A stretch of 20,000 nt of DNA, taken from IMG/VR virus record IMGVR_UViG_3300031227_011830; one strand, given 5' to 3'. This document shows positions 1 through 19,348 of this stretch, piece by piece. The notes below the pieces were generated by a model. That model was not told the DNA's origin and did not search any database. It worked only from the letters and a program-made list of their open reading frames with translations. The DNA is from an uncultured virus (IMG/VR IMGVR_UViG_3300031227_011830). Its lineage: Duplodnaviria > Heunggongvirae > Uroviricota > Caudoviricetes. Positions within the stretch are counted from its first letter, which is position 1. Each line of letters begins with the position of its first letter. Both the position numbers and the translations under genes were made by a program.

Positions 1-3000
1 TTGTCAGCGTCAGAACCGCTATCAAATACGCTTACATCAAATATGGGAGATAACTGATTATAAAGCCTATCGGCCTCTGTTTGATTGTGATTCATTATGA
101 CCACTTTGATGTAAGGCTTCTCTGTATCATAAACAATGCCATACGTCTTAGGGTGATTCTGGTACAGTTTGTCAGTTTTATGATTGTAATTCATTACGGC
201 CACTTTGATGTAAGGCTTCTCTGTGTCATAAACAATGCCATACATCTTGGGGTGATTCTGGCGTATCCGCGCGTGTATTCTATCAAACAATCCTTCAGCA
301 GTCTTAGACATTGAACCAGGCTTCGTTCTATCCCAAACAAACAACTTGCCAATAACCTTGGCAAACTTAACTCCATTCTCTACACACGAATGCCAGAAAT
401 CCCAGTCTTCATAGCCTTCTCGAAGTTTCTCATCGTAACCGCCCGTATCTTGCCATACAGACTTTCTCACCAAAGCTGTACAACATATCTGATTGATATT
501 TGTTATCAGTTGTGGTTTGAAACATTGTATACGTTCGCCTTCCTTACCATCTTCCTCAAGAACTTTAACATCTGTATAGACTACTCCAACATCTGATTGA
601 GATTCCATGTAAGCCACGCATCTCTCAAGCATATCAAGTTCAATATAGTCATCCGCATCAAGCGGTAATACATATTTTCCCCTTGCTGCTCGAAACCCCG
701 TATTGCGAGCCGCAGCTAAACCTTGATTGCTCTGCTCTACCAATACTATCTTATCTTTGCTATATTGCTTCCAAAGTTGTCCAACAGCTTCATCACAATC
801 ATCAGGGCTTCCATCGTTGACTATGATAATCTCAAAGTCTTGAAGTGTTTGATTCATCACACTGCCGACTGAGCGTTCCAAATAAGACGCATGATTCCAG
901 CACGGTATTACAACAGACACCAATGGCTCATGCTGTAAACTTTCTACAGCCACTAATTTATCCTCCGGTACTCTACAAAACTCAGCATGATTTGAACACA
1001 CTTCATAATGCAGCTCTTGTCTAATCTCATAACAATCATACCGCATTCCTGCATGACTTTGGTCATAAATAACCAATGCCTCTGGTACTTTTACAAACTT
1101 GACATCCATTTCCGCACATGACAACCAAAAATCCCAATCTTCATAGCCTTTTTTTAGACTTTCATTGTAGCCACCACATGTCTCCCATACCGATCTGCGA
1201 ATCAAAGATCCAGAATGCAATAGATTATTACCTTTGATTTTCTCAATATCAAACTCTGTACTCCAATATTCTTCGCATCGAGAAAACACCTTTATCACAT
1301 CTGTAAAAACAACGCCAACTTCTGGATTGCCTTTAAATGCTGCAATGCACTTCGCAAGCATATCAAGTTCAATGTAATCATCCGCGTCAAGGGGTAATAC
1401 ATATTTGCCCCTTGCTGCACGAAAACCAGCATTGCGTGCCCCACTCAATCCTCTATTGGGCTGCCCAATCAGGATGATATCAATGTCGTCATACTGTGCT
1501 TGTAAAGAACGAACAACATCAGAGCATTCATCTGGACTACCATCATCAACAACAATGATTTCAATGTTCTTGAAAGTTTGGTTTACAACACTATCAACCG
1601 CTCGCACAAGAAAGTGAGCATGATTATAACAAGGTATCACAACAGACACCAATGGCTCATGCTGTAAACTTTCTACAGCCACAACTGGAATGCTATCAGA
1701 GCCAGCAATCTTATGTTTGTAAGAAGATGATGTAGTTGATACTTTAGAATCGACACGTTCCTTCCACATATCTAAAGCGTTCATACTTCGCAAAACATCT
1801 TCCGTTTGCAAATCATCTACAAGAAATAAATTATCAGAATAAGTTCCAATAGGTGTCAGATTCTGAGCGGCCTTGATGTCCATTCCTGAAACATCAAGCT
1901 CAGACATCTTGTAGGCTCTATACTTGATGTCTAATTGACCCAAATGACGAGCACAGCTTATATCAAGACCGCTATTCAGTCGTTCTCTTTTAGGCCATAA
2001 TTCCCAATCGCATTTTTCCAAAACTCTTCGACTAAAACATCGTCCAAGACCGATAGGCTCATTATGCCTATCAATACCGCCAGCCATTGTCCCTTTTGCA
2101 TAGCCTTCCCAATACCATAAACAATCCAGCTTGTCATCCCAAAAATAAAGATCGTTCAAACCAACAAGACAATCATCCTCCTGAGACTTGGCATAGATAA
2201 TCTCAAAGTAGTTTTCAGATAACAAATCATCCGAGCCCGCTATCACAACCGCATCAGGATTGGATTTTCGCGCCTGCTCAAGACCATGCTGCCACTTATG
2301 GTTCAAAGGCAAGTTAGGAAATTCAAAGTACTCAAATCCACACTGTTCGCATAATTCCTTTGACACATTGCCTTCTGAACCAACAGCAATCAATCTCAAA
2401 TCAAATCTATCACTTATTCTCTCCTTGATGTCCCCATACCGCTTTAGAACGAACTTAGTCAAAGAATGTCGTTTCCATACAGCCGTCAACAAGACAATTT
2501 CAGGATTCTTACGCCACCCTATGCCCCCTAATATCACTGGTTCTGACGGAATCAACTTCCTGACTTTATGATTGGAAATACAACTTCTACAAATGTCCCT
2601 TTCATACTTTCCTTTCGTGGGTAATACTTCAAGATAATCTTCACATAAATCTACAATCTGATTCCCAAAATCTTCCCTTCGATACCAATGTCGAGCAATC
2701 ACATTAGGCATTGCCGAACACCAATATACTGTACTGCCCCGCAACGCATATCCCGCACAATCGCACACAGCAGGCAATACACCATCATAAGGGCTATTAG
2801 GAACAACCAACATTGATTTACGTTCTACAGCAAGCATTTTGTGACCAAAATCGCGCTTCAAAAATGGGATAGCCTGCTCTGCACCAGGAACAACAGAAAC
2901 TCTAATAAAGTCAGCGTATTCGAGAGATTTCTCAATAAGTTTTGGAACGCCATTTCTCGCAGCTAATCCGTTAGTAAATAACACTATCTCTTTACATACA

Positions 3001-3245
3001 CCTGATATCTTTAACATTTTCAACCCATCATACAAAGATTTCCACAATAATGGTTCCCCGCCAGTAATAATAATTCTCTTGAACACATAACCCGCAAGCT
3101 TTGTAAAGTGTACAAAAGATTCAACATCAGCCATCGTCATATCATAGTTAGATTCTTCCATCATCATCCAACGCACGCCACAATCTTTACAACGCGCATT
3201 ACATGCTGAAGTAGTGTACAAATTTAAGTCTTCGCAAACAGCCAT
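1..3245 (-). CDS. Multidomain radical SAM / glycosyltransferase fusion protein (>1080 aa, 3' end beyond window)
   Basis: Translated by hand from ATG 3245, which overlaps the upstream TGA; no in-frame stop down to base 1. N-terminus MAVCEDLNLYTTSACNARCKDC has CxxxCxxC, then ITGGEPLL and LFTNG, then a Cys-rich SPASM/twitch-like segment (VCDC...YWC...ICRSC). Next is a divergent GT-A domain (IVLLTAVWKR...VVIAGSDDLL), two canonical GT2 domains (PLVSVVIPC(Y/W)NH, IIVVDDGS/IIIVNDGS, ARN.GFRAARGKYVLPLDADD, GYEDWDFW), and the start of a further GT-like domain (IKVVIMNHN...VSVFDSGS). Confidence 0.9.
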   Translation of the reverse strand, partial: MAVCEDLNLYTTSACNARCKDCGVRWMMMEESNYDMTMADVESFVHFTKLAGYVFKRIIITGGEPLLWKSLYDGLKMLKISGVCKEIVLFTNGLAARNGVPKLIEKSLEYADFIRVSVVPGAEQAIPFLKRDFGHKMLAVERKSMLVVPNSPYDGVLPAVCDCAGYALRGSTVYWCSAMPNVIARHWYRREDFGNQIVDLCEDYLEVLPTKGKYERDICRSCISNHKVRKLIPSEPVILGGIGWRKNPEIVLLTAVWKRHSLTKFVLKRYGDIKERISDRFDLRLIAVGSEGNVSKELCEQCGFEYFEFPNLPLNHKWQHGLEQARKSNPDAVVIAGSDDLLSENYFEIIYAKSQEDDCLVGLNDLYFWDDKLDCLWYWEGYAKGTMAGGIDRHNEPIGLGRCFSRRVLEKCDWELWPKRERLNSGLDISCARHLGQLDIKYRAYKMSELDVSGMDIKAAQNLTPIGTYSDNLFLVDDLQTEDVLRSMNALDMWKERVDSKVSTTSSSYKHKIAGSDSIPVVAVESLQHEPLVSVVIPCYNHAHFLVRAVDSVVNQTFKNIEIIVVDDGSPDECSDVVRSLQAQYDDIDIILIGQPNRGLSGARNAGFRAARGKYVLPLDADDYIELDMLAKCIAAFKGNPEVGVVFTDVIKVFSRCEEYWSTEFDIEKIKGNNLLHSGSLIRRSVWETCGGYNESLKKGYEDWDFWLSCAEMDVKFVKVPEALVIYDQSHAGMRYDCYEIRQELHYEVCSNHAEFCRVPEDKLVAVESLQHEPLVSVVIPCWNHASYLERSVGSVMNQTLQDFEIIIVNDGSPDDCDEAVGQLWKQYSKDKIVLVEQSNQGLAAARNTGFRAARGKYVLPLDADDYIELDMLERCVAYMESQSDVGVVYTDVKVLEEDGKEGERIQCFKPQLITNINQICCTALVRKSVWQDTGGYDEKLREGYEDWDFWHSCVENGVKFAKVIGKLFVWDRTKPGSMSKTAEGLFDRIHARIRQNHPKMYGIVYDTEKPYIKVAVMNYNHKTDKLYQNHPKTYGIVYDTEKPYIKVVIMNHNQTEADRLYNQLSPIFDVSVFDSGSDAD
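82..261. repeat. In-frame tandem duplication: 81-bp copies at 82-162 and 181-261 (period 99 bp = 33 codons)
   Basis: Direct comparison gives 75/81 identical, with all 6 differences transitions. Encodes QNHPK(M/T)YGIVYDTEKPYIKV(A/V)(V/I)MN(Y/H)N twice. Confidence 0.95.
910..1682. repeat. Exact 44-bp direct repeat (910-953 and 1639-1682) at the start of each duplicated GT2 domain
   Basis: acaacagacaccaatggctcatgctgtaaactttctacagccac occurs twice, 729 bp (243 codons) apart. caagcatatcaagttcaat at 626 and 1355 has the same offset. Confidence 0.95.
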
Positions 3246-5374
3246 CAATTGCCCCTTTTGATTCGGCCTTGAATAACAAAAATGTGATTTACAGAGGAAC
3301 GCACAACCGTAGTCTGATGAGCAATATCAATTTTGCTGCTATATCGCTCGCACACTTCCTCAATGCTATTGAAACATCTTACGTGACTTTTTGTCATAAA
3401 ATTGGGCACAGAAATGACTATATCGCTGCCAATAGGAAGCCCATTCAAAAGGCCCAAATCATCAATAATGTGTTCAAGAACTTCTAGAATGAGAATAACA
3501 TCGCCTAAACGATAACCTTTCCATTCAAAAACATCTGCTTTAACAAACTCAAAGTCGGGAACGTATCTTGCTGATTCCGAAATGCGAACTTGAGAAAAAT
3601 CAATGCCGATATAGCTTCGATAACCTTTATCACATAGCAGACGTGCAAGACGGCCTGTACCACAACCCAAGTCAACAATTCTACCAGACTCCTCTAAAAC
3701 TGGCAATAATTCCACAACAGTCCTATAAAGTTCTTTCCACGGACTCTTCTCCAAAGGTAACAAAGCCAACTCAACGGCAGAATCATACCATTCTACGCCA
3801 CATTCAGCAACATTTCCCATTTCCCGTTTGTGCACAGAATTGTCAATAGGTTTGTAGGGCTTCTTTTCTCTTACCTCGGATGCAATTCTTCTTTGCTCCT
3901 CACAACCCGCTCCTATTCCCATTCCATTCAGGTTGTAAGTGTAGTGATAAAGCATCCTATCATAGAAAAACCATTTCGACCTGCCCGCCATCTCCAAAAC
4001 AGGCAACATTATTACTTGGTCAATAGCCCGCTCATAGTAACTGCCATCCGCTTCACAAAAATCCTTCTTATCTATTGCATCATACAGGAACTTCTTGAAT
4101 GATTTAAGGTGAGATGAAACCCACGGATAACCCCTGACATCACAACTATCCAATAGGCCACAAGCCCCGCGATTCAACCATTCATCCTCGTATTGACTCC
4201 ATACAACATCATAATCTTCATGGCAACGCATCATCTGTGATATAGCATCTGTTCCTATCAGCCAATCATCCCCATCTACAAGAAAAATCACAGATTCCTC
4301 ATTGGAGCAAAAACGAGAAACGGCAACATCGATGTTCTTTGTTTTAGGCTGCTTTTCTCTATTGGATAAAACAATAGTATCCTTTCTGCCCAGCAAAGCA
4401 TCCAACCCCAATTCCAAAGAACCATCTGTCGAGGCGTCATCAACAAAGACTATTCCTAAATCTGGATAGTTCTGTCCAATAATAGACAACAAGCAATTGA
4501 AAAAATGGCATAGTGAATCTCTTTGAGTAACAACTATAATAGCTCTGTTAGACAGACTTCCAGATTTAAACACTTTGACCGCCTGCTGTTCTACCATTAG
4601 TTTGGCAGATTCTCTTTCATACACAGCCCACGGCTGCAACTCGCAGAAATGACATATTGTAGGTTCAACTAACTTAGTGCCTTTCAAAAACTGACATTTT
4701 GCAGACATTACATCTATATCGTGCTCTGAGCTTCCCAGGGTTGAAAACATAAGACTCTTACCAGAAACAACATTGGGCAGAGGCTCTATCCTATAATGAG
4801 CCATTGCAGTACATAAGATTGGCTCGTCTGCCCATTGTCCAGACAATCTCTTGAACTCCCACGACACTGCACTCCTCAAATCAGCAAAGTAATCGCGTGC
4901 CTTATCAAAAACAGCCTTAGCCTGCAAACTATCATCAAAATAGATGATTCCAGAATTGGCTTTGACCATGTAATCAAGATCAAACAACTTTATTTGCGTT
5001 GCAACATCCATATTGCCCCACTGACCTTCATATACCTTTCTTCCTTGAACTGCAAAATGATAATTACTCAACTCATCCCAAAAGAAGTCAATATCATCCT
5101 TGACCATCAAACAATCACAATCGACAAAAAGTGTCCTCTCAAACGGGGAATATCTGTCTATCAAAATCTTATTAGTACAGCCCACCAGCTTGTCATCTCC
5201 CATCACTTGACTATAATTGAACAAGTCGTCATCAATATCAAAAGACATGTCATGCATCAAGCAAATAGGTCTGCCTGTATCACGTAGACGAATAGAAACA
5301 GCAAGATTGCATGCCATTTTATAATACTTGACATCCCCTAGGGCTAAAATGAGATATCCTTCAGACAGAACCAT
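3245..5374 (-). CDS. Three-domain fusion: GT8-like GT-A domain + GT2 domain + class I SAM methyltransferase
   Basis: N-domain KILIDRYSPFERTLFVDCDCL...NSGIIYF...WADEP; middle domain IVFVDDASTDGS...IFLVDGDDWL; C-domain IVDLGCGTG...YIGIDFS...LEVLEHI. Start moved from 5461 to ATG 5374 (MVLSEG), which has an AAGGTGG SD-like sequence and avoids a 100-bp overlap. Confidence 0.85.
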   Translation of the reverse strand: MVLSEGYLILALGDVKYYKMACNLAVSIRLRDTGRPICLMHDMSFDIDDDLFNYSQVMGDDKLVGCTNKILIDRYSPFERTLFVDCDCLMVKDDIDFFWDELSNYHFAVQGRKVYEGQWGNMDVATQIKLFDLDYMVKANSGIIYFDDSLQAKAVFDKARDYFADLRSAVSWEFKRLSGQWADEPILCTAMAHYRIEPLPNVVSGKSLMFSTLGSSEHDIDVMSAKCQFLKGTKLVEPTICHFCELQPWAVYERESAKLMVEQQAVKVFKSGSLSNRAIIVVTQRDSLCHFFNCLLSIIGQNYPDLGIVFVDDASTDGSLELGLDALLGRKDTIVLSNREKQPKTKNIDVAVSRFCSNEESVIFLVDGDDWLIGTDAISQMMRCHEDYDVVWSQYEDEWLNRGACGLLDSCDVRGYPWVSSHLKSFKKFLYDAIDKKDFCEADGSYYERAIDQVIMLPVLEMAGRSKWFFYDRMLYHYTYNLNGMGIGAGCEEQRRIASEVREKKPYKPIDNSVHKREMGNVAECGVEWYDSAVELALLPLEKSPWKELYRTVVELLPVLEESGRIVDLGCGTGRLARLLCDKGYRSYIGIDFSQVRISESARYVPDFEFVKADVFEWKGYRLGDVILILEVLEHIIDDLGLLNGLPIGSDIVISVPNFMTKSHVRCFNSIEEVCERYSSKIDIAHQTTVVRSSVNHIFVIQGRIKRGN

Positions 5375-5951
5375 CAGACCCACCTTGCAGCAAATAATAA
5401 CCATGTGGATTGTCACCCAAATTCTCAACGTGCGATTCAATACTATCAAATTCATTATCATTCCAAATGGATAAATGAGCTTCGTTTATATTGCCATTCA
5501 AGAATCTTTCAGGACCATACCATGTGGGACCAATTGGGACCAACAACAAAAGCCACTTGCACTTTTTCAACATCTCGCCTATCAACCATAATGCCTGTAA
5601 CTTCTCTATGTGTTCTATCACGTCAGCCGAAAAAATCATATCATAATCGCCCATTGTCTCGACAAGCTCGCAAATGTCTCCGATGTAGATTTTGTCATAA
5701 ACCGCTTTCTGCGGTTTACCTATGTAATCTTCAAAGATTTCCACGCCATCAATTTGAGATTCCCACTGATCAGGCAATGGGTGTCCATTAGAAGCATCAA
5801 GAGCTTCCCTAAAAAGATAACCCCATTTGCCGAATCCAATACCAACATCTAAAACAGACATTGGCTTATGTTTCCTTACCATCCGCATCACTCGCGGAAC
5901 ATGAATGCAATCAGACCAACACATTTTGAATCTCCCACTATTCACTCTCAT
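5361..5951 (-). CDS. Class I SAM-dependent methyltransferase
   Basis: VLDVGIGFGKWG motif I, IDGVEIF motif II, YDMIFSADVIEHI. Confidence 0.85.
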   Translation of the reverse strand: MRVNSGRFKMCWSDCIHVPRVMRMVRKHKPMSVLDVGIGFGKWGYLFREALDASNGHPLPDQWESQIDGVEIFEDYIGKPQKAVYDKIYIGDICELVETMGDYDMIFSADVIEHIEKLQALWLIGEMLKKCKWLLLLVPIGPTWYGPERFLNGNINEAHLSIWNDNEFDSIESHVENLGDNPHGYYLLQGGSDGSV

Positions 5952-6549
5952 TCAAGAAAAGAGCAACATGCCGAAAATTACACTCAGTGTTTTCCCGAAC
6001 AGATTCTAAAGGATCACCCATGTTGAAAGGAGAAATCTGCAAGTTCATTGGCCTATATCCTATCCCTTTTTCAATCGGAACATCCAAATCACTATTGGAA
6101 CGTATTGCAGGAAATGTAGTTGTAAGAAGATAACGGCAACCACTCGATTTGAAATTGCCCAATACTTTCAGTATCCATTCATCAGGAAGATGAAACAAAA
6201 AGTCCCGACACAACAACAGGTCTGCTTTTCTAGGTATCTGCCTCACAGCATTGAACACCTCAAATCTATGATTTGGATATTTAGCTTGATTGGCTTCTAT
6301 GATATCAGGGACAATGTCACAGCCCATATAATCCACATCACCAATATCAACATGACGCATCCAATTCCAGTCTCCGCACGGTATGTCATTCATCGAACGA
6401 ATAGCATAACGCCTTATTACATCCTCCAAGTATTTTCTTATCTCATGAGTGTTTCTCAAAAAACTTCCATATCCACTCGCTGATTCTATTCTGCCGACAT
6501 ATTTACAATGAAACGAGTGCCACGATAATTCTTGTTTATGTAAATCCAT
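5938..6549 (-). CDS. Class I SAM-dependent methyltransferase
   Basis: SGYGS, MNDIPCGDWNWM, YMGCDIV, ADLLLCRDFLFHL. Likely start is ATG 6549, just after the upstream TGA (track start 6624). Confidence 0.82.
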   Translation of the reverse strand: MDLHKQELSWHSFHCKYVGRIESASGYGSFLRNTHEIRKYLEDVIRRYAIRSMNDIPCGDWNWMRHVDIGDVDYMGCDIVPDIIEANQAKYPNHRFEVFNAVRQIPRKADLLLCRDFLFHLPDEWILKVLGNFKSSGCRYLLTTTFPAIRSNSDLDVPIEKGIGYRPMNLQISPFNMGDPLESVRENTECNFRHVALFLNESE

Positions 6550-6550
6550 A

Positions 6551-7252
6551 TCAATAGTCCAATCTGTATTTGCCACGTAACATCTGTTGAACATAATCGT
6601 GATAACCCAATTCAACCTCGCCACCGACTACACCTGGTATGCTGCGACGACTTGAAAACCATGTGTGCCATACCAAACCTGAATAATCGCAAGCATGTGG
6701 CGCGAAACGCCCGCCAAAATCCTCCCGACAATACTCTACAAAACTCAAACGACCGCCTTCCTCAACCGCATCCAAACATAACTTCTCGCCAGTATCCCAC
6801 TGCGGCCAATTGTGTTCGAAACTGTGCCTCTTGAGCCAATCTGTACGTGCAAATAAATAAGAAGGACATACATACTTCTCAAGAATGCGACCCCAATCCT
6901 TGCAAATACCCGCAATAGTAACATCATCCTTATACAACCGTAAAGCTAACCCTATCCATTCCGGCGATACTGGATGAGCATCAGAACACAATGTGCAAAT
7001 AATGCCTATATCTGCCATGCTTGAGAGAAAATCCAGAGCCTTGCCATGCCGCACAGAATTGTCCATTCCCTTGAATAAACGAACGTCTGCCTGCGCGTCC
7101 AACCATTCCAAAGAACCATCCGTAGAACCGTTATCATAAACTAAGATTTCATAAGGAATGAGATGAGTATGCTCGCGTACCTTCTCTACACACAATCGAG
7201 TAAAAAAGTACGTATTATAGCTCACAACGCATATCGAAACGCCATCCTGCAT
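6551..7252 (-). CDS. Glycosyltransferase family 2 protein
   Basis: VSICVVSYN, YEILVYDNGSTDGS, atypical DxD region (TLCSDAHP), WDTG. Confidence 0.85.
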   Translation of the reverse strand: MQDGVSICVVSYNTYFFTRLCVEKVREHTHLIPYEILVYDNGSTDGSLEWLDAQADVRLFKGMDNSVRHGKALDFLSSMADIGIICTLCSDAHPVSPEWIGLALRLYKDDVTIAGICKDWGRILEKYVCPSYLFARTDWLKRHSFEHNWPQWDTGEKLCLDAVEEGGRLSFVEYCREDFGGRFAPHACDYSGLVWHTWFSSRRSIPGVVGGEVELGYHDYVQQMLRGKYRLDY

Positions 7253-7276
7253 TTCATACTCCTGTCATCTCTGAAG

Positions 7277-7879
7277 TTATGTTGTGATAACCTGAAAATG
7301 AGAAGACCACTTAGCCTGCAAACGTGCTCGATAATCCCAATAGTTGCCCCAAACAGCACCTTGCTTGGTAAACGTAGTTGAATGATGCTCAAAACGCTTC
7401 AAAGGCAATACCACAGATGCCCGACCATGAGCACGCTGCTCATAACAGTAATCTTCAGCATACAAATGCAAGCCATTAAATGTCTTTTCGTCAAATCGCA
7501 ATCCGTGTTCTTTGTCTATGATTATACAACACGAATCCAACGAGGCTACTTCAATAGGCCTATCTATCTCATTCGACCACTGTATTACGTCAGCCCAATC
7601 AATACCAACTAATCCCATTGTACCAACAGACGAACGATATACACTGTCAGCAACTTTAAGTATTTCCTCAGAAAAGCAAATATCAGGATGTGCGAACATC
7701 ACAAATCGCGTATCCGACGCTTCAAGAATCCGATTGAACACACTTGCGATGCAAATCGGACCTAAACTTCGCATCGCAACATACGGAACGCCTAATGACC
7801 TCAACGAAATCTCAAGGTCATTTTCAAGCACTCGCCTGTCTGTGTATATCGAAAAAATACTAATGTCTCGGCTAACCAT
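7277..7879 (-). CDS. GT-A fold glycosyltransferase (GT2-like)
   Basis: FVMFAHPDICF, VASLDSCCIII, RFDEKTFNGLHLYAEDYC, EHHS. ATG 7879 is preceded by AAGGTGG (track start TTG 7894). Confidence 0.8.
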   Translation of the reverse strand: MVSRDISIFSIYTDRRVLENDLEISLRSLGVPYVAMRSLGPICIASVFNRILEASDTRFVMFAHPDICFSEEILKVADSVYRSSVGTMGLVGIDWADVIQWSNEIDRPIEVASLDSCCIIIDKEHGLRFDEKTFNGLHLYAEDYCYEQRAHGRASVVLPLKRFEHHSTTFTKQGAVWGNYWDYRARLQAKWSSHFQVITT

Positions 7880-8381
7880 CTTCCACCTTGGCAATCATAA
7901 CACCATTCTTGTATTGAGACGATGCCGTATCAACATCAAACTTGTAACGCTTGTCAATACTTTTAATTGCCTGCATAATCTCTTCAACAGTCGGCAGAAA
8001 GTTCCCAAAGTACTGAGTGTCATCTATCAGAATCACATGGCGGTGCGGATGTCGTCTAAGATACCTAAGCTCGTCTAATAAAGGACATGCCTTTCTGTCC
8101 GCATTGTGAGCATCAAGCCATAAAAGGCAACGATCATTGATGCCATCCATCATTCGTGGAAATATCTCGGCTGAGTCCCCGCAATACAAATGAACATTTT
8201 CGCTTTCATTGAATCGCTCAAGGCATTTTGTGTGATACTCCAAAAGCAATTCAACGCTATGCACTTCATCGAAAATAGCCAAAGCTTTGACTATTGTGTT
8301 GCCTTGACGACTGCCCGTTTCAACAAACACTCGACAACCATCTTGATGCTTCTTGAGAAAATCTACACTATCAATTGGCAC
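7872..8381 (-). CDS. Methyltransferase-like protein (Rossmann/SAM-binding fold)
   Basis: VFVETGSRQGNT, VHSVEL, GDS, LLWLDAH, ILIDD. GTG 8381 follows an AGGAG SD (track start 8417). Confidence 0.72.
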   Translation of the reverse strand: MPIDSVDFLKKHQDGCRVFVETGSRQGNTIVKALAIFDEVHSVELLLEYHTKCLERFNESENVHLYCGDSAEIFPRMMDGINDRCLLWLDAHNADRKACPLLDELRYLRRHPHRHVILIDDTQYFGNFLPTVEEIMQAIKSIDKRYKFDVDTASSQYKNGVMIAKVEDG

Positions 8382-8392
8382 TGAAACGTCTC

Positions 8393-8972
8393 CTACTTTC
8401 TGGCAATGCCCCAACAATCAGAACCTAAAGTCACAGCAGTCACATCACCGTTCCGCGAACTAACCAATGGAATAAACAAGTCAAACTCCTTGACATAAAA
8501 AGAGTCTTTTTTGTCTGATATGTAGACTGCGATTGTGGATAACCCAGCCTCCTGAAACATACAACCCATACCATCGGGTAAAAACCTAAATGTGTCTATC
8601 GGATAACTTGTGTTCAGCCCACATGAACGGCGCAGTCAAAAACATATAGCTACCACTTTTCAATACTCTTGACATCTCCTTAACAAGCTTGAATGGATTC
8701 CTACAATGTTCTATAGTCTGACCCGAAATCACGACATCAGCATATTCATCTTCCAAAGGTATTGTGAAATCGTCAGTCATAACAACATCCACATTATTAC
8801 CCGCCGCTATGTCAACTCCAATATAAGTCCAATTAGACGGCAAAGCAGAACGATAAGAACCAACACCTACATCGCAACTACCTACATCAACCACAATCAA
8901 ATTCTCTTCAAATCTATCACTTAAAAACTTCCAAATGTTAGAAAACATCTCTGCAAAAGAAGAATCATGCAC
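8393..8972 (-). pseudogene. Class I SAM methyltransferase interrupted by a 1-bp insertion near 8605-8606 (pseudogene or sequencing error)
   Basis: The first frame has VVDVGS, YIGVDI, ADVVISGQTIEHC...FLTAPFMWAEHK and stops at 8586. Removing one base continues YPIDTFRFLPDGMGCMFQEAGL...DCWGIARK* to TAG 8393. Span is 580 bp = 3n+1. Confidence 0.85.
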
Positions 8973-8995
8973 AATTTTATATCCTTTGTGAACAA

Positions 8996-9907
8996 TTACT
9001 TGTAGGTGTCATCACCTAACCGTAAAACCTTTCGCATCCCAAACATCACATCCATCAAAATGGCAGCAACCTCTTCTTCTCTGTCAAAACGATACTCATG
9101 ACCATATTCGTTATCTAACAAAAACTCAGCACCGTTCGCTTCTTGTGTCTTCTGTTTTGCCCATCCAAAATGTTCCTCAAACTTGCAATCCGTAGATAAC
9201 TGCCCACGAGTAAATCCGCCCTGATGACATATCCTATCCCCATATACTAAACACATCGAACGATTCAATTCTGAATCCATGCCAAGAATAGATTTGGCAC
9301 ATCGTGTTACTCTATAACCATCTACTAGCCCGCCATTACTCCGAACCAACGCCGGAATCAATAAGCCAGTGTCATCACCGCCATTATATCGCATTATCTC
9401 ATACTTGGAAAACAAATCTGTCGAATTTAACTGACAAGCAACGTGCGTGTTGTGCCAACATAACTGTGTCCTAATTCGAAACTCTAAACTGCCAAACTCT
9501 AAAGCCAAAGGCGGAGGAACAAAAGGATGTAAAATGCCAACACATAATGCCCCGGATTCAAGCATTTTGAGTAAATTAGACAACCAATCATCAGCAATCG
9601 GAAAACAATCAGAATCCAAAGTCATTACATACTTTGTCGAAATCTTGCTTGGAATGACCATATCAAGCATTTGACCATGAATACGACTTGATAACTTGGT
9701 AGAAATATCTGTGGGATTTGCAAAATTCAACTCGTGATTTGGAAACTGTGACAACAAATCTTCAGCATCAAACTCATCAGGCGAACCATGACATACTAAC
9801 GACAATACAATGTCTTCTCGCGTATGCCGCCTAATACTGTCCAAACATACCTTTAGAATAGACTTTGTGCCTGTTTTGTAACAAACAACTATCGTTACGT
9901 CTGGCAT
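8996..9907 (-). CDS. Divergent GT2-like glycosyltransferase
   Basis: VTIVVCY...CLDSIRRHT, HGQMLD, YVMTLDSDCFPI, DDTG. Shares the HG..LD, SD..P and DTG motifs with 6551..7252. Confidence 0.78.
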   Translation of the reverse strand: MPDVTIVVCYKTGTKSILKVCLDSIRRHTREDIVLSLVCHGSPDEFDAEDLLSQFPNHELNFANPTDISTKLSSRIHGQMLDMVIPSKISTKYVMTLDSDCFPIADDWLSNLLKMLESGALCVGILHPFVPPPLALEFGSLEFRIRTQLCWHNTHVACQLNSTDLFSKYEIMRYNGGDDTGLLIPALVRSNGGLVDGYRVTRCAKSILGMDSELNRSMCLVYGDRICHQGGFTRGQLSTDCKFEEHFGWAKQKTQEANGAEFLLDNEYGHEYRFDREEEVAAILMDVMFGMRKVLRLGDDTYK

Positions 9908-10491
9908 TCTTCATCCTCGACTTTGGGGTGAATAGCTTCAATTTCCTTTACCCTTTTGTCAACGATACTCTTCAGATAATTCGTAGCCATTATAGATACA
10001 TTCTCTGGAACATCACGGAACTCAATAAGGTCCGCCGCTACCATTCTGTCATCAAATTGTGTCATCACCGGAGTAGATTTGCATTTCTTTTGACCATTTA
10101 TGACTGTAACTGATAAAACTACTCTAACTGTTCCATCATACTTCTCGTCCTTTGGAACAACCACGCCTCTACTAAAAAACGGAAGAACACGTTCATCTTG
10201 ACTACAATCATACTTCTGACATTCTTTCGGATGAGCGCCCCAAATCTTACACTTTCGCTTCAACGGATCAAAATAGCAACAATGACCTGCCGATGTCTTT
10301 GCAACAACATATACGCCTCTACGAGCCAATACCTCATCATACTTGTACTTGTCTATCTCATCCTTTGCAAGACCTACACGGAATGAAGTACAACACATGT
10401 GACCATGCTTGCAATTGTCACAATCAAGATTTACCATATCATCCGGCATACTTTGACTCCTTGTGAACATTCTGCTTGCAATTATTGACAT
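9895..10491 (-). CDS. YkgJ/CxxCxxCC-type cysteine-cluster (putative Fe-S/Zn) protein with C-terminal extension
   Basis: CDNCKHGHMCC, HCCYFD, CKIWGAHPKECQKYDC match the CxxC..CC / C.FL / C.IY..RP..C pattern. Confidence 0.72.
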   Translation of the reverse strand: MSIIASRMFTRSQSMPDDMVNLDCDNCKHGHMCCTSFRVGLAKDEIDKYKYDEVLARRGVYVVAKTSAGHCCYFDPLKRKCKIWGAHPKECQKYDCSQDERVLPFFSRGVVVPKDEKYDGTVRVVLSVTVINGQKKCKSTPVMTQFDDRMVAADLIEFRDVPENVSIMATNYLKSIVDKRVKEIEAIHPKVEDEECQT

Positions 10492-11097
10492 TTACAGATG
10501 AATCGCTAAACATTCAGGAACTTCAATCCACTTGAAGCGATTGCCAAACTCCTCGTAAGTCTGACCATCCGTAAAATAACCTAACTCGCCTTGAAAACCT
10601 GCTTGTTTGAACACTTCTGTTCTTATCATTATCTGTAACGTGTCAATGTGATACAACTTCGGCGGAACCCCAGTCAAAACCTTGGGAGGCTTGCCCCAAA
10701 AGTCCTGTAAAGGCCCAAAATGCAATATGCGACATATCGCCCACGGCTCGTCATTCTCGGCTGATTCCAAAGCTTCAACCATTCTCGCAAGATACGAAGG
10801 CATAATCACATTGTCGTCATCATAAAAAACTAAATAATCCCCAGTTGCATTCTCAACCATCTCCTTGCGTACGCCATATCCATAATCATTGTGAGCTTTT
10901 GAAGTGTGATGGTAAGTCAACTTTTCACTTTCTTCAGCCAAAACAAGCGAGTGAATAGGGCTCTCAAACTCACCATCTGAGCAAAGAATGTGCTCCCAAT
11001 TCTCATAAGTCTGCTCACGAACACATCCAATGCAACGAGCGACAATACGAGGCTCGCGATGTAACGTAGGCGTGATAATCGAAACTTTAGCACTCAA
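10492..11097 (-). CDS. Glycosyltransferase family 2 protein
   Basis: KVSIITPT, QTYENWEHILCSDG, ATGDYLVFYDDDN. TTG start with AAGGAG SD. Confidence 0.88.
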   Translation of the reverse strand: MSAKVSIITPTLHREPRIVARCIGCVREQTYENWEHILCSDGEFESPIHSLVLAEESEKLTYHHTSKAHNDYGYGVRKEMVENATGDYLVFYDDDNVIMPSYLARMVEALESAENDEPWAICRILHFGPLQDFWGKPPKVLTGVPPKLYHIDTLQIMIRTEVFKQAGFQGELGYFTDGQTYEEFGNRFKWIEVPECLAIHL

Positions 11098-11110
11098 CGA
11101 TAGCTCTCCT

Positions 11111-11437
11111 TTACCAATTCACTTCTTTTGCCCCACCAGGACTGTTAGGCGGTCCACCATCCGCATAATACTCTATCAACTTTTTCGCCTGCTTAGGTTC
11201 TATCACGCCAGTTATACCAGATTGTATGTTAGCCTCAATGTTCTTGGCACAATCAAGTATAGACCTGCCAGAAAACGCCGCCGGCCCGCTACCGCCTAAC
11301 ATGGTAAAACGTATGCCATCATTGCCTTTGCAATGAGGACAAAAAAGTTCTACTGAATCAACACGATAAACACATTCGCCAAAAACATCATCCTTTGTCT
11401 TGGTTTTTACTTTGATACACTGTCCTACGTCAAACAT
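11111..11437 (-). CDS. Hypothetical protein (single CPHC motif)
   Basis: 108-aa ORF that fills the operon gap, with an AAGGAG SD and a 13-bp overlap with galE. Confidence 0.7.
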   Translation of the reverse strand: MFDVGQCIKVKTKTKDDVFGECVYRVDSVELFCPHCKGNDGIRFTMLGGSGPAAFSGRSILDCAKNIEANIQSGITGVIEPKQAKKLIEYYADGGPPNSPGGAKEVNW

Positions 11438-12378
11438 CCTTTTACTCCTTTATGCCAACCAAAAGCGGTCAAAACAATCTTGTCAATATCACTCATGCTT
11501 GGCAACCAATTCAATTCCGATTTGGCCTTGTCTACCACGGCCAACGAAAATGGAGAAACGTCTTTTTTGCGTACGCCAACCCTTATCGGCTTGTCAATAA
11601 TGCCGCCTATCTTCTCCAAAAGAGTCATAATGGAAGTGCCATAACCAGAACCAATGTTGAATACGCTAAATTTGCTCTTCTTTGTATGCTCAATAGCTCT
11701 CAAATGAGCATCAGCAACATCACAAACATGAACATAATCACGAATACAAGTCCCGTCAAATGTTGGCCAATCAGCTCCATGCATTATAAACTTAGTGTCC
11801 ATTCCAAAACCTACCCGAATGATGCTCGGAATGATAGCAGAAGATTCTATCGTTTCGCCTATCTTTCCTGAAATGTGAGCGCCGCCAACATTGAAAGGCC
11901 GCAAAACTGTACACCGTAAATCACTCCAACGAGTAAACGCCTCTATCTGCTCTTCTGCTATCAATTTGCTATAACCATAATCACTCTCGGGATTCTTACA
12001 AGCTTCTTCATCAACCCCTGATAAATATGAACCATATACAGCCGCCGATGAACAAAACACAAGACGATTGATGCCACATTTGAGCATGCTTTTTATCACA
12101 CTAAGTGTACCACGAGTGTTGTTCTCATAATACCGCCTTGCAGGATGCTTTCCCTTTCCAATTTCCTTGATAGCAGCAAGATGACATACAATGCTTATGT
12201 TGTGCGTAAGTATGGTTTCAGAAAGCAAAGTCTCATTGAGAACATTCCCCGTAACATGACTATCCCCAAGCGAAGGACTCAAATCATACACTATTGGATT
12301 ATACCCACTATCCTGCAATAATTTTACAAGATGTATCCCAATATAGCCTGCGCCGCCTGTTACAAGTACGTTTTCCAT
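11425..12378 (-). CDS. galE: UDP-glucose 4-epimerase-like NAD-dependent epimerase
   Basis: VLVTGGAGYIG, YYENNTRGT, FCSSAAVYG, YGYSK (YxxxK), DGTCIRDYVHVCDVADAH, FNIGSGYGTS. Confidence 0.9.
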   Translation of the reverse strand: MENVLVTGGAGYIGIHLVKLLQDSGYNPIVYDLSPSLGDSHVTGNVLNETLLSETILTHNISIVCHLAAIKEIGKGKHPARRYYENNTRGTLSVIKSMLKCGINRLVFCSSAAVYGSYLSGVDEEACKNPESDYGYSKLIAEEQIEAFTRWSDLRCTVLRPFNVGGAHISGKIGETIESSAIIPSIIRVGFGMDTKFIMHGADWPTFDGTCIRDYVHVCDVADAHLRAIEHTKKSKFSVFNIGSGYGTSIMTLLEKIGGIIDKPIRVGVRKKDVSPFSLAVVDKAKSELNWLPSMSDIDKIVLTAFGWHKGVKGCLT

Positions 12379-12389
12379 TACTTCTGCCC

Positions 12390-15179
12390 TTACTTCTGAA
12401 GAATCGTACTGCCTTTATTGACATCATAAAACCACGTATTGCTGTCCTCAAACTTACGCAACGGAATAAACGCAATATACCCCTTCTTGATTTCACCCCG
12501 AAATTGCTTCTGACCTTTCTGGAAAACAAAAAACTTTATCTCGTCTACATCATCACTCAACTCTATAAACAAATAAGGATTCCCATTCTTCGACACTCTT
12601 GGTGTAATGTCTTCTACACGACCAAATACAAACGATAAACTGTCCCGATGACATAAGTCCGATATGAAACAGCCCAAACTTTGAGATTCTACCTTGTCTC
12701 TATACTGACTCTGTAAAGTTGGCTTTGATAAGCATAACCCGTTCAATGCTTCACGCTCATGCTTTTCCAAACTCGTTTCAGTAAACTCAGGTGGCTCGTC
12801 TTTTTTGATTTTGCGAAGCTCAAAATACCTGTCCGATACTTCTTGGGGTGCCCCAAAACAATCAAATGCCCGCGCATATACCAAATTCATGAATACACGC
12901 TTGTTGACCCGACGACGATTTACACGATTATGAAAATCCTCTACATCCTTGAATAGACCATTAGCCTCGCGCTCAACAACAATGTCCGCCGCCGACTTGC
13001 CAACTTGCTTGATATGATTCAAAGCGAATCGCATTTCTCCATCTTCAATGCTGAAACCGTCAAGACTCTTATTGATGTTCGGTCCTAATATCTTGATGCC
13101 CCGGCGTCGAGCATAACTAATGTAATCCATCATCAACGGACGACTATCAGTTTGTCGCTTCTTCTTCGCAGGGGGCGTGTTGTTTAACAATGCGGTAATA
13201 TACTCTGTGGGATAATGATGCTTCAACCAAAACTCAGCCGATGTTACTGCCGAATATGCCATTGCATGGGAATTAGACGTGATTATTCCATTAGCAAGCG
13301 CAAAGTTGTGGGATGGATGACGTACTTCCAAATCGTAGACATGTCGGTAGCCCACAAACACTGCTGATAACACTCTCCGAATAACCACACGCCCGGAATC
13401 GACTTGTTTAGTAGAACATTCTAAGCTTTCAAGTAATGAAGGAACCAAAATCTTTTGCGTTCTTTCCCATAAACCTAACGCATCTAACCGTCTCGTTTTA
13501 CTGCTGACCATAGACAATACTTCTATGTTGTCCTTCATTATTTTCCATAGCGGAAGCATTCCATTAGGTGTAAGAAACTTATGATTGACAGAACAAGTAA
13601 CCTTTTCGCCAGCATCAAATGTGACTTCAAAGGATTTCAACTTGCCGTGGTCATGCAATGCAATCACTTCTGTTGGCACAAAATTACCACCATCGTAACA
13701 CCATACACTATCACCAGATTCAAAATCGCATATTCTCTTACTCCTGCCATCTACTGTATCAACCAATGTATCTTTGTCAACTGAACGATTGAATCCATAA
13801 CCACCGAAACTTTTCAATAAATTCCAAATCTCGTCAACTTCTTGCTCTGTTACTTCCCCGGAATCAACCCTTGCTTGTGCCCCCTTCTTGAACTTTTCTT
13901 CCATTATGGGCAACCTATCCAGTTTCTTCTTTGCTATGACACTACGCAATTGATTTGACTCAACAGGGGTGAAGCCCGCAAATACCTGAGCAACCTTCAT
14001 TACTTGCTCCTGATAAACAATTACGCCATACGTCTCAGATAATATCTCTCGTAAACACGGAATCATCTCATATTGCTCACCATGCTTACGCCGTGCATAT
14101 ACTTGGTCCATTCCCATGTTCTTCGGACCAGGACGTATCAATGAAGTCACAGCACTAATGTCGAAAATGCTATCAACGCCAACAGCATCTATAACCGGTT
14201 TCGTACCAGGACTCTCAAACTGAAAAATACCAACGCAATCCTGCTTAGCTTGTAACCTAATAACCTCACAGTCATTGATAGGCAACCTACTACGACTCAA
14301 TTTTCTGCCACGTCCTGCTTCAATATACTGCAAACAATCTGAAATAACAGATAAATTTTTTAATCCCAAAATGTCGAATTTGACAAGACCAATTTCACTC
14401 AATTCGTGTGTTGCTAAACCTTCTGACCATACTGATACCACAGCACCACTATTATCGCGAAAAACGGCTACCTTGTCCTGTAAATCCAAATTGCTTATGA
14501 TGACGCCGCCGGCATGTTTTCCAGCATTCTTGACCTGATTCCTGAGAACCTTTGCATGAGTCAATACTTCAGGATTCTTGTCAAAATAAGTTTTCAGCTC
14601 AGGATAGTGCTTGCAAACTTCCTCAAAATCCATCTCATCAATCTTTTGCTCTTCGCTTTCACCTTCGCCCAGAGCAACATCAAACTTGGCAAGCGTATCC
14701 ATCTGCTTGGTTACCTGCATCGCAGCCCATACATCCAATCCTAATGCTCTGGATACATCAACTATTACAGCACGTGTCTTGTACGTCTGATACGTTCCAA
14801 TTGAACACGTCTTGGCTTCCCCAAATACATCTACTATGTGAGCTTTCACCCAATCCCTAACACGAGGATCAAAATCAGTATCAATGTCGGGAACAGTTCC
14901 TCCAAAAAATTTGTCTTTGTACAAATCTTTACAAGACAACACTGGATCAATCAAGGCAATATCAAGCAAAAACATAATAAGACTATTATAACTATCAGCA
15001 TTCTTGATATTTTGCTCTTTGCTTGCCTGCCACAACCTATTACAGGTTCCTCTATTTTTAGATTCCGTCTTTCTCAACTCTTCTAACTCTTCCACAAGAC
15101 GATTTAGATACCGCTTTTGATTTCCAAATTCAGACATGATTCTTTCAACACAACGCTTCTTTATCTCAAAAAAAGACAT
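12390..15179 (-). CDS. dnaE: DNA polymerase III alpha, C-terminal half (catalytic palm, thumb, fingers, HhH, OB), intein-containing
   Basis: PDIDTDF, KHAGGVII, GLVKFDILGL, GIFQFES, IRPGP, TYGVIVYQEQVM, YGFNR|SHAMAY, LKHHYPTEY, GPNINKS, C-terminal OB-like GRVEDITPRVSKNG. Start is ATG 15179 (MSFF, GAGG upstream) or 15215. Confidence 0.93.
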   Translation of the reverse strand: MSFFEIKKRCVERIMSEFGNQKRYLNRLVEELEELRKTESKNRGTCNRLWQASKEQNIKNADSYNSLIMFLLDIALIDPVLSCKDLYKDKFFGGTVPDIDTDFDPRVRDWVKAHIVDVFGEAKTCSIGTYQTYKTRAVIVDVSRALGLDVWAAMQVTKQMDTLAKFDVALGEGESEEQKIDEMDFEEVCKHYPELKTYFDKNPEVLTHAKVLRNQVKNAGKHAGGVIISNLDLQDKVAVFRDNSGAVVSVWSEGLATHELSEIGLVKFDILGLKNLSVISDCLQYIEAGRGRKLSRSRLPINDCEVIRLQAKQDCVGIFQFESPGTKPVIDAVGVDSIFDISAVTSLIRPGPKNMGMDQVYARRKHGEQYEMIPCLREILSETYGVIVYQEQVMKVAQVFAGFTPVESNQLRSVIAKKKLDRLPIMEEKFKKGAQARVDSGEVTEQEVDEIWNLLKSFGGYGFNRSVDKDTLVDTVDGRSKRICDFESGDSVWCYDGGNFVPTEVIALHDHGKLKSFEVTFDAGEKVTCSVNHKFLTPNGMLPLWKIMKDNIEVLSMVSSKTRRLDALGLWERTQKILVPSLLESLECSTKQVDSGRVVIRRVLSAVFVGYRHVYDLEVRHPSHNFALANGIITSNSHAMAYSAVTSAEFWLKHHYPTEYITALLNNTPPAKKKRQTDSRPLMMDYISYARRRGIKILGPNINKSLDGFSIEDGEMRFALNHIKQVGKSAADIVVEREANGLFKDVEDFHNRVNRRRVNKRVFMNLVYARAFDCFGAPQEVSDRYFELRKIKKDEPPEFTETSLEKHEREALNGLCLSKPTLQSQYRDKVESQSLGCFISDLCHRDSLSFVFGRVEDITPRVSKNGNPYLFIELSDDVDEIKFFVFQKGQKQFRGEIKKGYIAFIPLRKFEDSNTWFYDVNKGSTILQK
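13272..13784 (-). mobile_element. Contiguous mini-intein (171 aa, no homing endonuclease) in DnaE at GFNR|SHA
   Basis: Interrupts the conserved YGFN(K/R)SHA motif. Begins SVDKDT; block B TCSVNHKFLT; blocks F/G VYDLEV..SHNFALANGIITSN; +1 residue Ser. Confidence 0.92.
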
Positions 15180-15181
15180 TC

Positions 15182-15288
15182 TTATATTTTCCTCTTCATG
15201 CTTTGCCCATAACATTTTTTGAACAAAACTTTCTGCGTTCTTTTCGGTTATTTTGAAACTCTCTATTACAATGTAAGCATTTATCCAT
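15182..15288 (-). pseudogene. Small Zn-finger ORF remnant between the two dnaE halves
   Basis: AAGGAG SD then ATG 15288: MDKCLHCNREFQNNRKERRKFCSKNVMGKA* (stop 15196). One extra A in the A6 run gives ...KFCSKKCYGQSMKRKI* (stop 15182), completing CxxC...FCSxxC. Confidence 0.6.
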
Positions 15289-15303
15289 GATGATTCTCCT
15301 TAT

Positions 15304-16896: not shown

Positions 16897-17962
16897 ACTT
16901 GTACCTTTCCGCTACCCATGCCGGTGTAACAATGTAAGATTTATCATGCCTGAATACCAATACCTTGTCACTATTATACCGAGCATACGCCGGGTTTACC
17001 GAAGCAATTACGTTCTTCTTGTCAAAAATTCCATAAAAACGCATAAACGCCTTCAAATTGTCATCATCCAAATCAGAAACAACACGCACAACAGCCGTTT
17101 CACTCTTATGTCCTGTCAACTCACGAAACGAATCACTACACCTCACCTCGACTGGAACATAAGTAGACGCATAATGTGTCAATGAAATAGGTTCGTCAGA
17201 AGAGAACACTCCTTCAGGATTCATGACAATATAGATACACTGAGAATCCGTAGGGACTTTCTGCAACATACGACCGTAAAATGACGAATATCCAACACTT
17301 CTACAGGATTCATTCAATGCCGGAATACTCTTTGAAACACTGAAACCCATACGACCCATTCCATCACAAAGCAAATTCGTATCAAACGTCATGTGAGCAT
17401 TATCAGAAACTACTTCTGTGTCAGACTGAGTAAATGAGATACGCCTCGGAATCACTTGCATATCCTGCATCATCCGAATAATGAGCATGCCCAAAGCAGG
17501 CAAAGCATCACTGACTGGAGATACAAAAAACTTGCTTGTGGGGAACTGCCTTGCTGATTCAGATACTGCCAAAGGTGAAAAGTTCTCGCATGATAAACAT
17601 ACTGTCAATTTGCTTGCAATCGCCTTTGCATGCTCAGAATCAATCAAAATACTGCCTTTTAACCCTAAACTATCACGAAACGTGAGAAAAGTAACTAATC
17701 CTTGCTCACAATGCCATAAATTCAAACAGTAATTATGAGAAAAGCCTGATAGGAATGCCGTTGCAGTTATAGCCGCCAACGAAACTTCCGTTGAAATAGA
17801 TTGCCCTTCTAAACTCCCCGAAAGACGACTAGACGAAATCAAGCCATGCGAGATGGAAGGCGGGAAATTATCTGGCATGAAACAACCAACATAAGAAATG
17901 GCCATTTGCTCATCAGAAGAAAACAAATGACCTGTCAGGTTATCATAGCCATAGTATTTCAT
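16886..17962 (-). CDS. Hypothetical protein
   Basis: 358-aa ORF overlapping the dnaE-N start by 11 bp; no motif recognised with confidence. Confidence 0.75.
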   Translation of the reverse strand: MKYYGYDNLTGHLFSSDEQMAISYVGCFMPDNFPPSISHGLISSSRLSGSLEGQSISTEVSLAAITATAFLSGFSHNYCLNLWHCEQGLVTFLTFRDSLGLKGSILIDSEHAKAIASKLTVCLSCENFSPLAVSESARQFPTSKFFVSPVSDALPALGMLIIRMMQDMQVIPRRISFTQSDTEVVSDNAHMTFDTNLLCDGMGRMGFSVSKSIPALNESCRSVGYSSFYGRMLQKVPTDSQCIYIVMNPEGVFSSDEPISLTHYASTYVPVEVRCSDSFRELTGHKSETAVVRVVSDLDDDNLKAFMRFYGIFDKKNVIASVNPAYARYNSDKVLVFRHDKSYIVTPAWVAERYKCES

Positions 17963-17975
17963 GTTTATTGAAACA

Positions 17976-18008: not shown

Positions 18009-18029
18009 CCTTCGTAAGGGAATGCTTAC

Positions 18030-19316: not shown

Positions 19317-19348
19317 CACATTCTTGCTCTGCTTTTTTTGCATTTTGA

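Follow-up and report, generated by a model that had tools for sequence, protein, structure and literature searches.

A glycosyltransferase and methyltransferase island behind dnaE in an apparent huge tailed phage

What is glycosylated by a long run of glycosyltransferase (GT) and methyltransferase genes that begins directly behind a phage-like replicative polymerase? The question is raised by a 20,000-nucleotide stretch of an uncultured virus (IMG/VR record IMGVR_UViG_3300031227_011830), hereafter the window, in which all genes across 1..20000 lie on the minus strand. The island at 1..12378 consists of 14 open reading frames (ORFs) on that strand with intergenic gaps never above 24 bp, and 11 bp separate the stop of the C-terminal dnaE gene (12390) from the start of galE (12378). 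It encodes GalE, nine full and one edge-cut GT-A or GT-A-like domains, five methyltransferase or methyltransferase-like domains, a CxxCxxCC protein and a radical SAM domain. This agrees with an earlier sequence-only reading, which had described a co-oriented run 11 bp after the dnaE stop with about 9-10 GT-A domains, five methyltransferase(-like) domains, a YkgJ-type Cys protein and a radical SAM domain; gap and strand are confirmed and all of these domains are recovered. The best explanation places the window in the replication block of a huge tailed phage and takes 1..12378 as a variable glycan island in the slot behind dnaE. That the product is a complex methylated glycan, as proposed before, can fairly be inferred from the soluble enzyme families, and we give about an even chance to virion proteins as its acceptor.

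The phage lineage and its post-dnaE slot

The evidence supports the window as coming from a huge tailed phage (Caudoviricetes, DnaE type) and not from a bacterial chromosome. At least half of its sampled words are present in each of four metagenome runs from salt lakes, one of which may be its source. Its DnaE is 25-31% identical to the best 30 listed matches among 50,697 phage records, and the ParB-like marker has no match among the same records. A single-sequence search of IMG/VR with the N-terminal half of DnaE (DnaE-N) also gave no match. The relatives identified in IMG/VR share 47-56% DnaE identity and the same gene order, which in this lineage is RecA, 5'-3' exonuclease, kinase, metallophosphoesterase, ParB-like protein, a gene for a protein of 358 amino acids (aa) and dnaE. 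One of them, G003, encodes TerL, portal and head maturation protease (PHROGs) together with 29 transfer RNAs (tRNAs); a PF03237 terminase search missed the lineage terminase that PHROGs found. Tail tube and capsid-like families are present across the lineage. CheckV estimates correspond to genomes of about 215-350 kb, and the largest lineage record, G012, has 253 kb at 75% estimated completeness. In the ParB and DnaE-N trees the window groups with G001, G012, G015 and G016 (99/98 and 99/96). A pattern-limited search of 185,579 GTDB species genomes found the ParB marker at one locus, on a 2.2-kb contig of one metagenome-assembled genome. The phage origin assumed by the sequence-only reading therefore holds, and an ordinary bacterial chromosome fails on the lineage trees, the structural genes of G003 and the GTDB result. 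The lineage is apparently undescribed: the literature searched gave no fitting description, supplementary genome tables, which might list it, lying outside this coverage. Moraphages (PMC12619734) were considered as a name for the lineage and rejected, since they use a family B polymerase.

The position behind dnaE was surveyed with ParB-alignment searches, which are blind to GTs. IMG/VR holds 17 ParB loci, 14 of them distinct and 13 with enough post-dnaE sequence; nine of the 13 have a GT less than 2.5 kb after dnaE and four have gyrase (recognised by sequence motif, not by family call) within a few genes. Metagenomes gave 44 loci, 15 of which extend at least 1.5 kb past dnaE; seven are new, one of these being 91-96% alike to G013, and all seven carry the A9 family GT. 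Together, 16 of the 20 informative relatives have a GT behind dnaE, and three further GT-next records, found by other queries, stand outside this census. Genomes of 35-64% GC share the arrangement dnaE, 108-aa gene, A9 GT. A core of A9, A7 and A8 GTs is in fixed order in 8-9 of nine sister islands, several of which were found with the A9 query; A8 shows 68% mean column identity, and A7 is GT-A-like by one weak Pfam match only (E 0.002), a profile comparison of A7 against family A5 giving no match. The slot also holds dUTPase, a degenerate dUTPase family, MazG, a YfbR-like HD enzyme and adenine DNA methyltransferases. The degenerate dUTPase family (131-143 aa) occurs post-dnaE in both sub-lineages (L120:16943-17344, L001:12325-12750, L214:17473-17889 and others) and is absent from the window.

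The content of the slot changes among relatives. Only three window ORFs (families A3, A9 and A5) cluster full-length with post-dnaE genes of relatives. The four nearest relatives of the window are the gyrase-next records, and their GT genes, where present, are elsewhere. In G015 some 18 GT, methyltransferase and radical SAM genes form another cluster, situated behind SbcC and RuvC; G012, with 75% completeness, has no PF00535 match. On a contig identical to the right end of the window, a GT/epimerase fusion lies upstream of the phosphoesterase. We conclude that the post-dnaE GT position is real and old in the lineage and that the island is an exchangeable cassette for which this slot is favoured. 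The data do not support an obligatory link to DnaE, because the four nearest relatives have gyrase after dnaE and GTs elsewhere; the arrangement is customary in the lineage without being required. The claim of direct coupling to the polymerase therefore stands as a common position and falls as a rule, GT homologs also being found far from dnaE. The 'unbroken' run is likewise co-oriented, but a single transcript draws no support from sequence scans, in which promoter-like and terminator-like sites are at chance level (43 against 49.1 and 12 against 12.0).

The acceptor of the glycan

If the island works as a single pathway on virion proteins, GalE would supply UDP-Gal/GalNAc, the GT-A domains would add sugars one after another in the cytoplasm without a lipid carrier, and the methyltransferases would cap the sugars with O-methyl groups. 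The acceptor would be a phage structural protein, foremost the collagen-like, Thr-rich fibres of the tail and perhaps also subunits of the capsid or tail. The first sugar may be set by a fibre-linked GT, with the island enzymes lengthening and diversifying the chain, and the altered surface may serve adsorption, stability or protection.

The enzymes themselves appear soluble. A hydropathy scan found no membrane protein or segment among the island ORFs of the window; the sole hydrophobic stretch (Kyte-Doolittle 2.2) is an N-terminal extension overlapping the upstream gene. Family and hydropathy scans agree with the earlier statement that the run shows no obvious transmembrane protein and no exporter or priming phospho-GT. 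In relatives, 142 of 144 island-region ORFs have no membrane segment and the other two have one each. Association with virion genes comes from several families. The 228-aa methyltransferase of the island is 42% identical to mycobacteriophage Ariel gp17 and to cyanophage ACG-2014f gp227, and Ariel gp17 sits with three GTs between the major capsid and head-tail connector genes. Relatives of this methyltransferase occupy 28 IMG/VR loci; 15 belong to one phage group, where they lie among tape-measure, head-protease and neck genes, and three more are near portal or terminase genes, with GTs. Three of nine near relatives of the 201-aa A12 GT lie between a tail-fibre gene and the head protease (L347, L349, L350). 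For A8, the most conserved GT of the sister islands, the 80 best of 518 matches were examined; seven are lineage loci, and 39 of the other 73 have a collagen repeat no more than 10 kb away. Counted by 90%-identity groups this is 30 of 51, against none of 74 control DnaE loci of similar length. These A8 loci often carry tail sheath, tube and baseplate genes. Collagen-like proteins are encoded in six lineage records, Thr-rich in four of them, and G002 has a Thr-Pro repeat protein. In G003, G004 and G010 the last gene of the tail-fibre module encodes a GT2-TPR protein, accompanied in G003 by a sulfotransferase, and in G012 a GT-B is two genes past a Thr-rich collagen.

Several points weigh against virion proteins. 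All of this support is guilt by association and points to a putative acceptor. The island is in the replication block and not in the structural block in 16 of 20 relatives, A8 is absent from the window, and collagen is found at none of the 28 loci of the window methyltransferase relatives. Virion glycosylation might be entirely the work of the fibre-linked GT, with the island serving another target. Sister islands also carry GT9 heptosyltransferase, GT17, HldE-like nucleotidyltransferase and DegT aminotransferase genes, of which the GT9, HldE-like and DegT members fit envelope chemistry equally well. The island could accordingly remodel the host envelope, acting at the inner membrane face on lipid-linked lipopolysaccharide (LPS) core, O-antigen or S-layer glycan, with host exporters being used and superinfection blocked during a carrier state. 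Soluble GTs can act on host lipid carriers, so the absence of exporters from the island does not exclude an envelope target, and the restriction to intracellular targets in the sequence-only reading dismissed the host envelope glycan too early. In favour of this, window proteins match the sugar island of ACG-2014f, five lineage records encode a tubulin/TubZ-like protein, and G001 is classed as a provirus by IMG/VR. Similar cyanophage clusters are interpreted in print as LPS modifiers that block rival phages (PMC7824862, PMC12801897), an interpretation that comes without a test in the passages concerned. However, genes for priming, flipping and chain length are absent from every island examined, island content is wholly different between near relatives, and members recur beside virion genes in other phages. 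We regard an envelope target as unlikely. It is also conceivable that there is no single pathway and that the post-dnaE slot is an insertion or recombination hotspot, collecting glycan and other genes with mixed targets, some of them decaying. By full-length clustering 11 of the 14 window ORFs in 1..12378 join no family of relatives' post-dnaE genes, although the GT2 domain of one of the 11, the 738-aa fusion, recurs in the G003 island. One methyltransferase is frameshifted, there are internal duplications and a 97-bp allele block inside the A9 gene, and further GT and epimerase genes are found elsewhere in the same block (L272, G015, G016). Such a mixture is nevertheless rather improbable in view of the ordered A9, A7, A8 core and the conservation of A8. 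The GC content and third-position GC content (GC3) of the island equal those of the replication genes, which together with the conserved core points to long residence and selection.

The sequence-only reading had left the target between DNA and virion proteins; the latter are now favoured, and DNA is disfavoured because no base-activating enzyme was found in the partial genomes of relatives, with working positive controls. As a DNA modifier, the island would glycosylate and methylate nascent phage DNA as an anti-restriction hypermodification and would be kept behind dnaE for this reason. The conserved order of dnaE, 108-aa gene and A9 GT across genomes of such different GC content suits this, as does the gathering of nucleotide-pool and DNA enzymes in the same slot. 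ParB-like and carbamoyltransferase-fold genes precede dnaE, and both folds occur in phage DNA-modification clusters. For the ParB fold this is described in a passage of PMC13229309, and according to a part of 10.1101/2023.12.21.572611 the GTs that act on phage DNA are similar to LPS enzymes and attach chains as long as trisaccharides. In G020, an unrelated phage, a divergent thymidylate-synthase-family gene is about 9 kb from an A8 GT, and at L347 a DNA methyltransferase adjoins the A12 GT. (The G020 gene, L148:262-1101, E 7e-18, in a 260-kb phage, is a possible hydroxymethylase.) Known phage DNA glycosylation, however, depends on a hydroxyl handle that comes either from a thymidylate-synthase homolog or from a C5 methyltransferase acting with a dioxygenase, as passages of 10.1101/2023.12.21.572611, PMC13326640 and PMC13229309 describe. 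The thymidylate-synthase family is found in none of 16 lineage records by a search that detects T4 gp42. TET/JBP is also absent from the 16, where the controls were silent, and from three on a repeat in which Cooper was detected (E 4e-8). QueC is found in none of 16 and the TGT family in none of 11 with PF01702, a profile that may miss DpdA; the host could supply preQ0 for 7-deazaguanine DNA modification. C5 methyltransferases occur in two of 16 records (G012, G013), at least 45 kb from the slot, and a 2OG-Fe(II) oxygenase, of prolyl-hydroxylase-type family, in one of 16. T4 gp42, alpha-gt, beta-gt and gp56 have no match by phmmer or tblastn, either in the window or in the 1.74 Mb of lineage DNA searched, whereas the control UvsX found RecA. 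Among 102 conserved or slot proteins scanned, most of which belong to no family, there is no base-activating enzyme. These negatives rest on records 5-75% complete and on a search tool that missed a divergent terminase. No thymidylate-synthase-family, TET or TGT gene occurs in G017, a phage from outside the lineage with a complete genome of 320 kb in which A12, A8 and A9-like GTs are neighbours. The carbamoyltransferase fold before dnaE is without its His motif, weakening the parallel to DNA-modification clusters, and the four nearest relatives have no GT after dnaE. We therefore consider DNA a doubtful target. A version that dispenses with both the thymidylate-synthase homolog and TET, in which adaptors encoded beside dnaE (the ParB-like protein, the pseudo-carbamoyltransferase, the 108-aa protein and the degenerate dUTPase) would bring the A9 GT to the replisome and variable GTs and methyltransferases would extend the sugar into a long, strain-specific methylated DNA glycan, is very unlikely.

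Genes of the island and around dnaE

The features of the window are listed in Table 1. GalE reaches 264.2 bits against the NCBIfam TIGR01179 cut-off of 262.3, in agreement with the earlier call, and is the sole sugar-making enzyme in the window. Six domains pass or nearly pass the Pfam GT2 cut-off, two in the 1082-aa ORF and one each in the 738-, 233-, 201- and 205-aa ORFs. The 303-aa A9 protein is a GT-A by its AlphaFold-predicted fold (predicted local distance difference test, pLDDT, 83.6; Foldseek matches to SpsA/TarP/WrtF, E 7e-9); the fold matches generic GT-A enzymes and indicates no acceptor. A9 is the commonest GT directly after dnaE and has 269 metagenomic homologs, all 120 of those listed being unnamed or hypothetical. 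The GT-A-like part of the 1082-aa ORF is assigned only indirectly, through a homolog, P0258, that matches PF00535 (E 7e-4). The same applies to the N-terminal part of the 738-aa ORF, which is assigned through phrog_1903 and through a protein of a cyanophage sugar island that matches GT8 weakly. Two of the nine GT assignments and one of those for methyltransferases thus depend on weak or indirect matches, and a tenth GT-A-like domain is interrupted by the window edge. Within the 1082-aa ORF the DNA of the two GT2 copies agrees at 72% over 397 bp, and there is an 81-bp repeat at 82-261. The GT2 domain of the 738-aa ORF matches the G003 island at E 2e-59, and the true start of this ORF is probably about 90 bp further in. 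Near homologs of the A12 GT (E 1e-63 and 6e-56) lie in the tRNA regions of G003 and G004, far from dnaE.

Table 1. Features of the window with positions, strand and basis of assignment
Feature	Position	Strand	Basis
1082+ aa fusion: radical SAM, GT-A-like (residues 245-510), two duplicated GT2, onset of a further GT-A-like domain	1..3248	-	PF04055, PF00535 x2; open at window edge
738-aa fusion: GT-A-like, GT2, class I methyltransferase	3245..5461	-	Pfam, phrog_1903
Class I methyltransferase-like, 196 aa	5361..5951	-	PF13489, E 4e-4
Methyltransferase, 228 aa, phrog_3382 family	5938..6624	-	PHROGs match
GT2, 233 aa, family A5	6551..7252	-	Pfam; also in islands of G002, G004, G006, G010
GT2-like, 205 aa	7277..7894	-	PF13712, 26.9 bits against cut-off 27
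Methyltransferase-like, 181 aa, O-methyltransferase type, weak	7872..8417	-	PF13578, E 0.07
Class I methyltransferase with one-base shift near 8605 (ORFs of 128 and 58 aa)	8393..8972	-	PF08241, E 5e-12, first half
Lineage-specific GT-A, 303 aa, family A9	8996..9907	-	Predicted fold (AlphaFold, Foldseek)
CxxCxxCC (YkgJ-type) Zn/Fe-binding protein	9895..10491	-	PF03692
GT2, 201 aa, family A12	10492..11097	-	Pfam
108-aa protein, family A3, without known family	11111..11437	-	Conservation in lineage
UDP-glucose 4-epimerase GalE	11425..12378	-	TIGR01179 above cut-off
DnaE C-terminal half (palm, fingers, HhH, OB) with mini-intein at about residues 479-649	12390..15215	-	Family profiles
DnaE N-terminal half (PHP, onset of palm)	15304..16896	-	Family profiles
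Shrunken NodU/CmcH (TobZ-type) carbamoyltransferase fold, 358 aa, lineage marker before dnaE	16886..17962	-	Predicted fold
ParB-like protein, lineage marker	18030..19259	-	ESM Atlas neighbours ParB/sulfiredoxin, mostly Uroviricota; alignment
Calcineurin-like metallophosphoesterase (SbcD-like), edge-cut	19349..20000	-	Pfam

The methyltransferase or methyltransferase-like set comprises the C-terminus of the 738-aa ORF and the 196-, 228-, 128- and 181-aa ORFs. A homolog of the weak 181-aa member in the G015 island has a PF13578 match and weak rhamnosyl O-methyltransferase/CmcI matches. The earlier ORF reading changes in two places: the 128-aa and 58-aa ORFs (8972-8393) are a single frameshifted methyltransferase gene, whose second half is open in the next frame, and a conserved gene of 108 aa had been missed. 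Metagenome contigs compared with the window show no indel near 8605. Contigs of run X1 break at 8606-8635 in this gene, which may mark a second allele. In the A9 gene, positions 9395-9491 show 16 differences between alleles, 10 of them at third codon positions, in four metagenome runs; this block is a recombined patch over the conserved 'THVACQL' stretch, and the remaining 20 kb are almost difference-free. A CxxCxxCC protein follows dnaE also in G015, there outside the GT island. The 108-aa A3 gene is a backbone gene of the post-dnaE slot, found in 11 of 18 lineage records examined in addition to the window, and almost always the first conserved gene past dnaE. The protein has an invariant G-x-G-P-x-A-type motif, with a CxxC pair in some members, and is a candidate polymerase accessory factor.

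The dnaE gene is present as two genes 88 bp apart (12390-16896, minus strand). The C-terminal half opens with about 100 residues that match the early palm region again, and its mini-intein begins with Ser; a similar dnaE split is seen in other homologs of 765-945 aa without PHP. Inteins of the LAGLIDADG type are carried by GT-Bs in G012 (L238:5141-7372) and G004 (L107:10037-12538). The 358-aa gene directly precedes dnaE in most of the lineage and is missing there in G012 and G016. The predicted fold of its product (pLDDT 93.7) combines Kae1-like and YrdC-like parts, with 18 Foldseek matches at E <= 0.001, those listed including TobZ (E 2.6e-6), VtdB, NovN and GdmN. Pfam and PDB sequence searches do not place the family (TobZ appears only at E 2), nor was there a usable ESM Atlas match. 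The protein is short compared with about 570 residues in NodU/CmcH enzymes. In the profile of the family, which has 134 representatives at 50% identity, the metal-binding HHxxH motif is replaced, and no His or Asp column reaches 90% conservation in 93 sequences. From the modelled fold it is possibly a pseudo-enzyme adaptor of the replisome. Elsewhere in the lineage, G003 (L085:5860-5946) and G004 (L099:5701-5775) have tRNAs with a CTA (amber) anticodon, assigned as Pyl by ARAGORN, transfer-messenger RNA (tmRNA) genes occur in G002, G004 and G005, and G015 (L241:658-9138) has a tandem array of about ten short paralogs beginning 'MKxRxGFVSNSSSSSF'.

Comparison with known glycosylation systems

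Large GT islands in big phages are already known; what is particular here is the post-dnaE slot, the unnamed GT-A families and the pseudo-enzymes around dnaE. The virion blocks of cluster O actinobacteriophages share soluble GTs and an O-methyltransferase in a tailed phage. According to passages of PMC11600133 and PMC12619734, an O-methyltransferase and three GTs modify capsid and tail tube in cluster O mycobacteriophages. The window has about 10 GT and five methyltransferase domains, compared with 2-3 and one, and carries them in a replication block; the three GTs of Ariel, a phage likened here by genes alone, have no detectable homolog in the window or lineage. The cyanomyovirus 'LPS-like' islands (P-SSM2, S-SCSM2R, ACG-2014f) are likewise large, variable epimerase/GT/methyltransferase clusters in big phages, and three window proteins match proteins of the ACG-2014f island. 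They also hold sulfotransferases, whereas the window belongs to a DnaE-type lineage, has its island linked to dnaE and has GalE as its only enzyme for making sugars. The glycogene clusters of giant viruses (PBCV-1 A064R/A061L; Mimivirus fibrils) share cytoplasmic multi-domain GT-GT-methyltransferases, a methylated glycan and the lack of membrane parts. A passage of PMC9614988 describes chlorovirus A064R as a soluble GT-GT-methyltransferase for the capsid glycan; the 738-aa ORF has the domain order of A064R, a working analogy by domain order, and the giant viruses differ in being viruses of eukaryotes. Phage DNA glycosylation systems (T-even 5-hydroxymethylcytosine GTs; C5 methyltransferase/5mYOX/GT; 5-hydroxycytosine arabinosylation) also have GTs and an epimerase near a replicative polymerase, but require a hydroxyl-handle enzyme, and none was found linked to the island here. 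The priming phospho-GT, Wzx/Wzy and ABC exporter of a bacterial LPS or capsule locus were not found in the window or in the sister islands read to their ends; an exact 30-base search yielded no contig that covers the left flank of the window.

Large GT islands in big phages are interpreted in three ways in print, as acting on the host envelope, on DNA or on the virion, with little testing. The lineage offers a natural comparison: its members share a backbone and exchange islands, some have the post-dnaE block and others do not, and both fibre-linked GTs and Thr-rich collagens are present. For biochemistry the island offers the unnamed GT-A families A9 and A7, and the lineage offers the pseudo-carbamoyltransferase family. 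If virion glycans are confirmed, bacterial viruses would make strain-specific methylated coats resembling those of giant viruses and exceeding by far the complexity of the two- to three-enzyme systems of mycobacteriophages.

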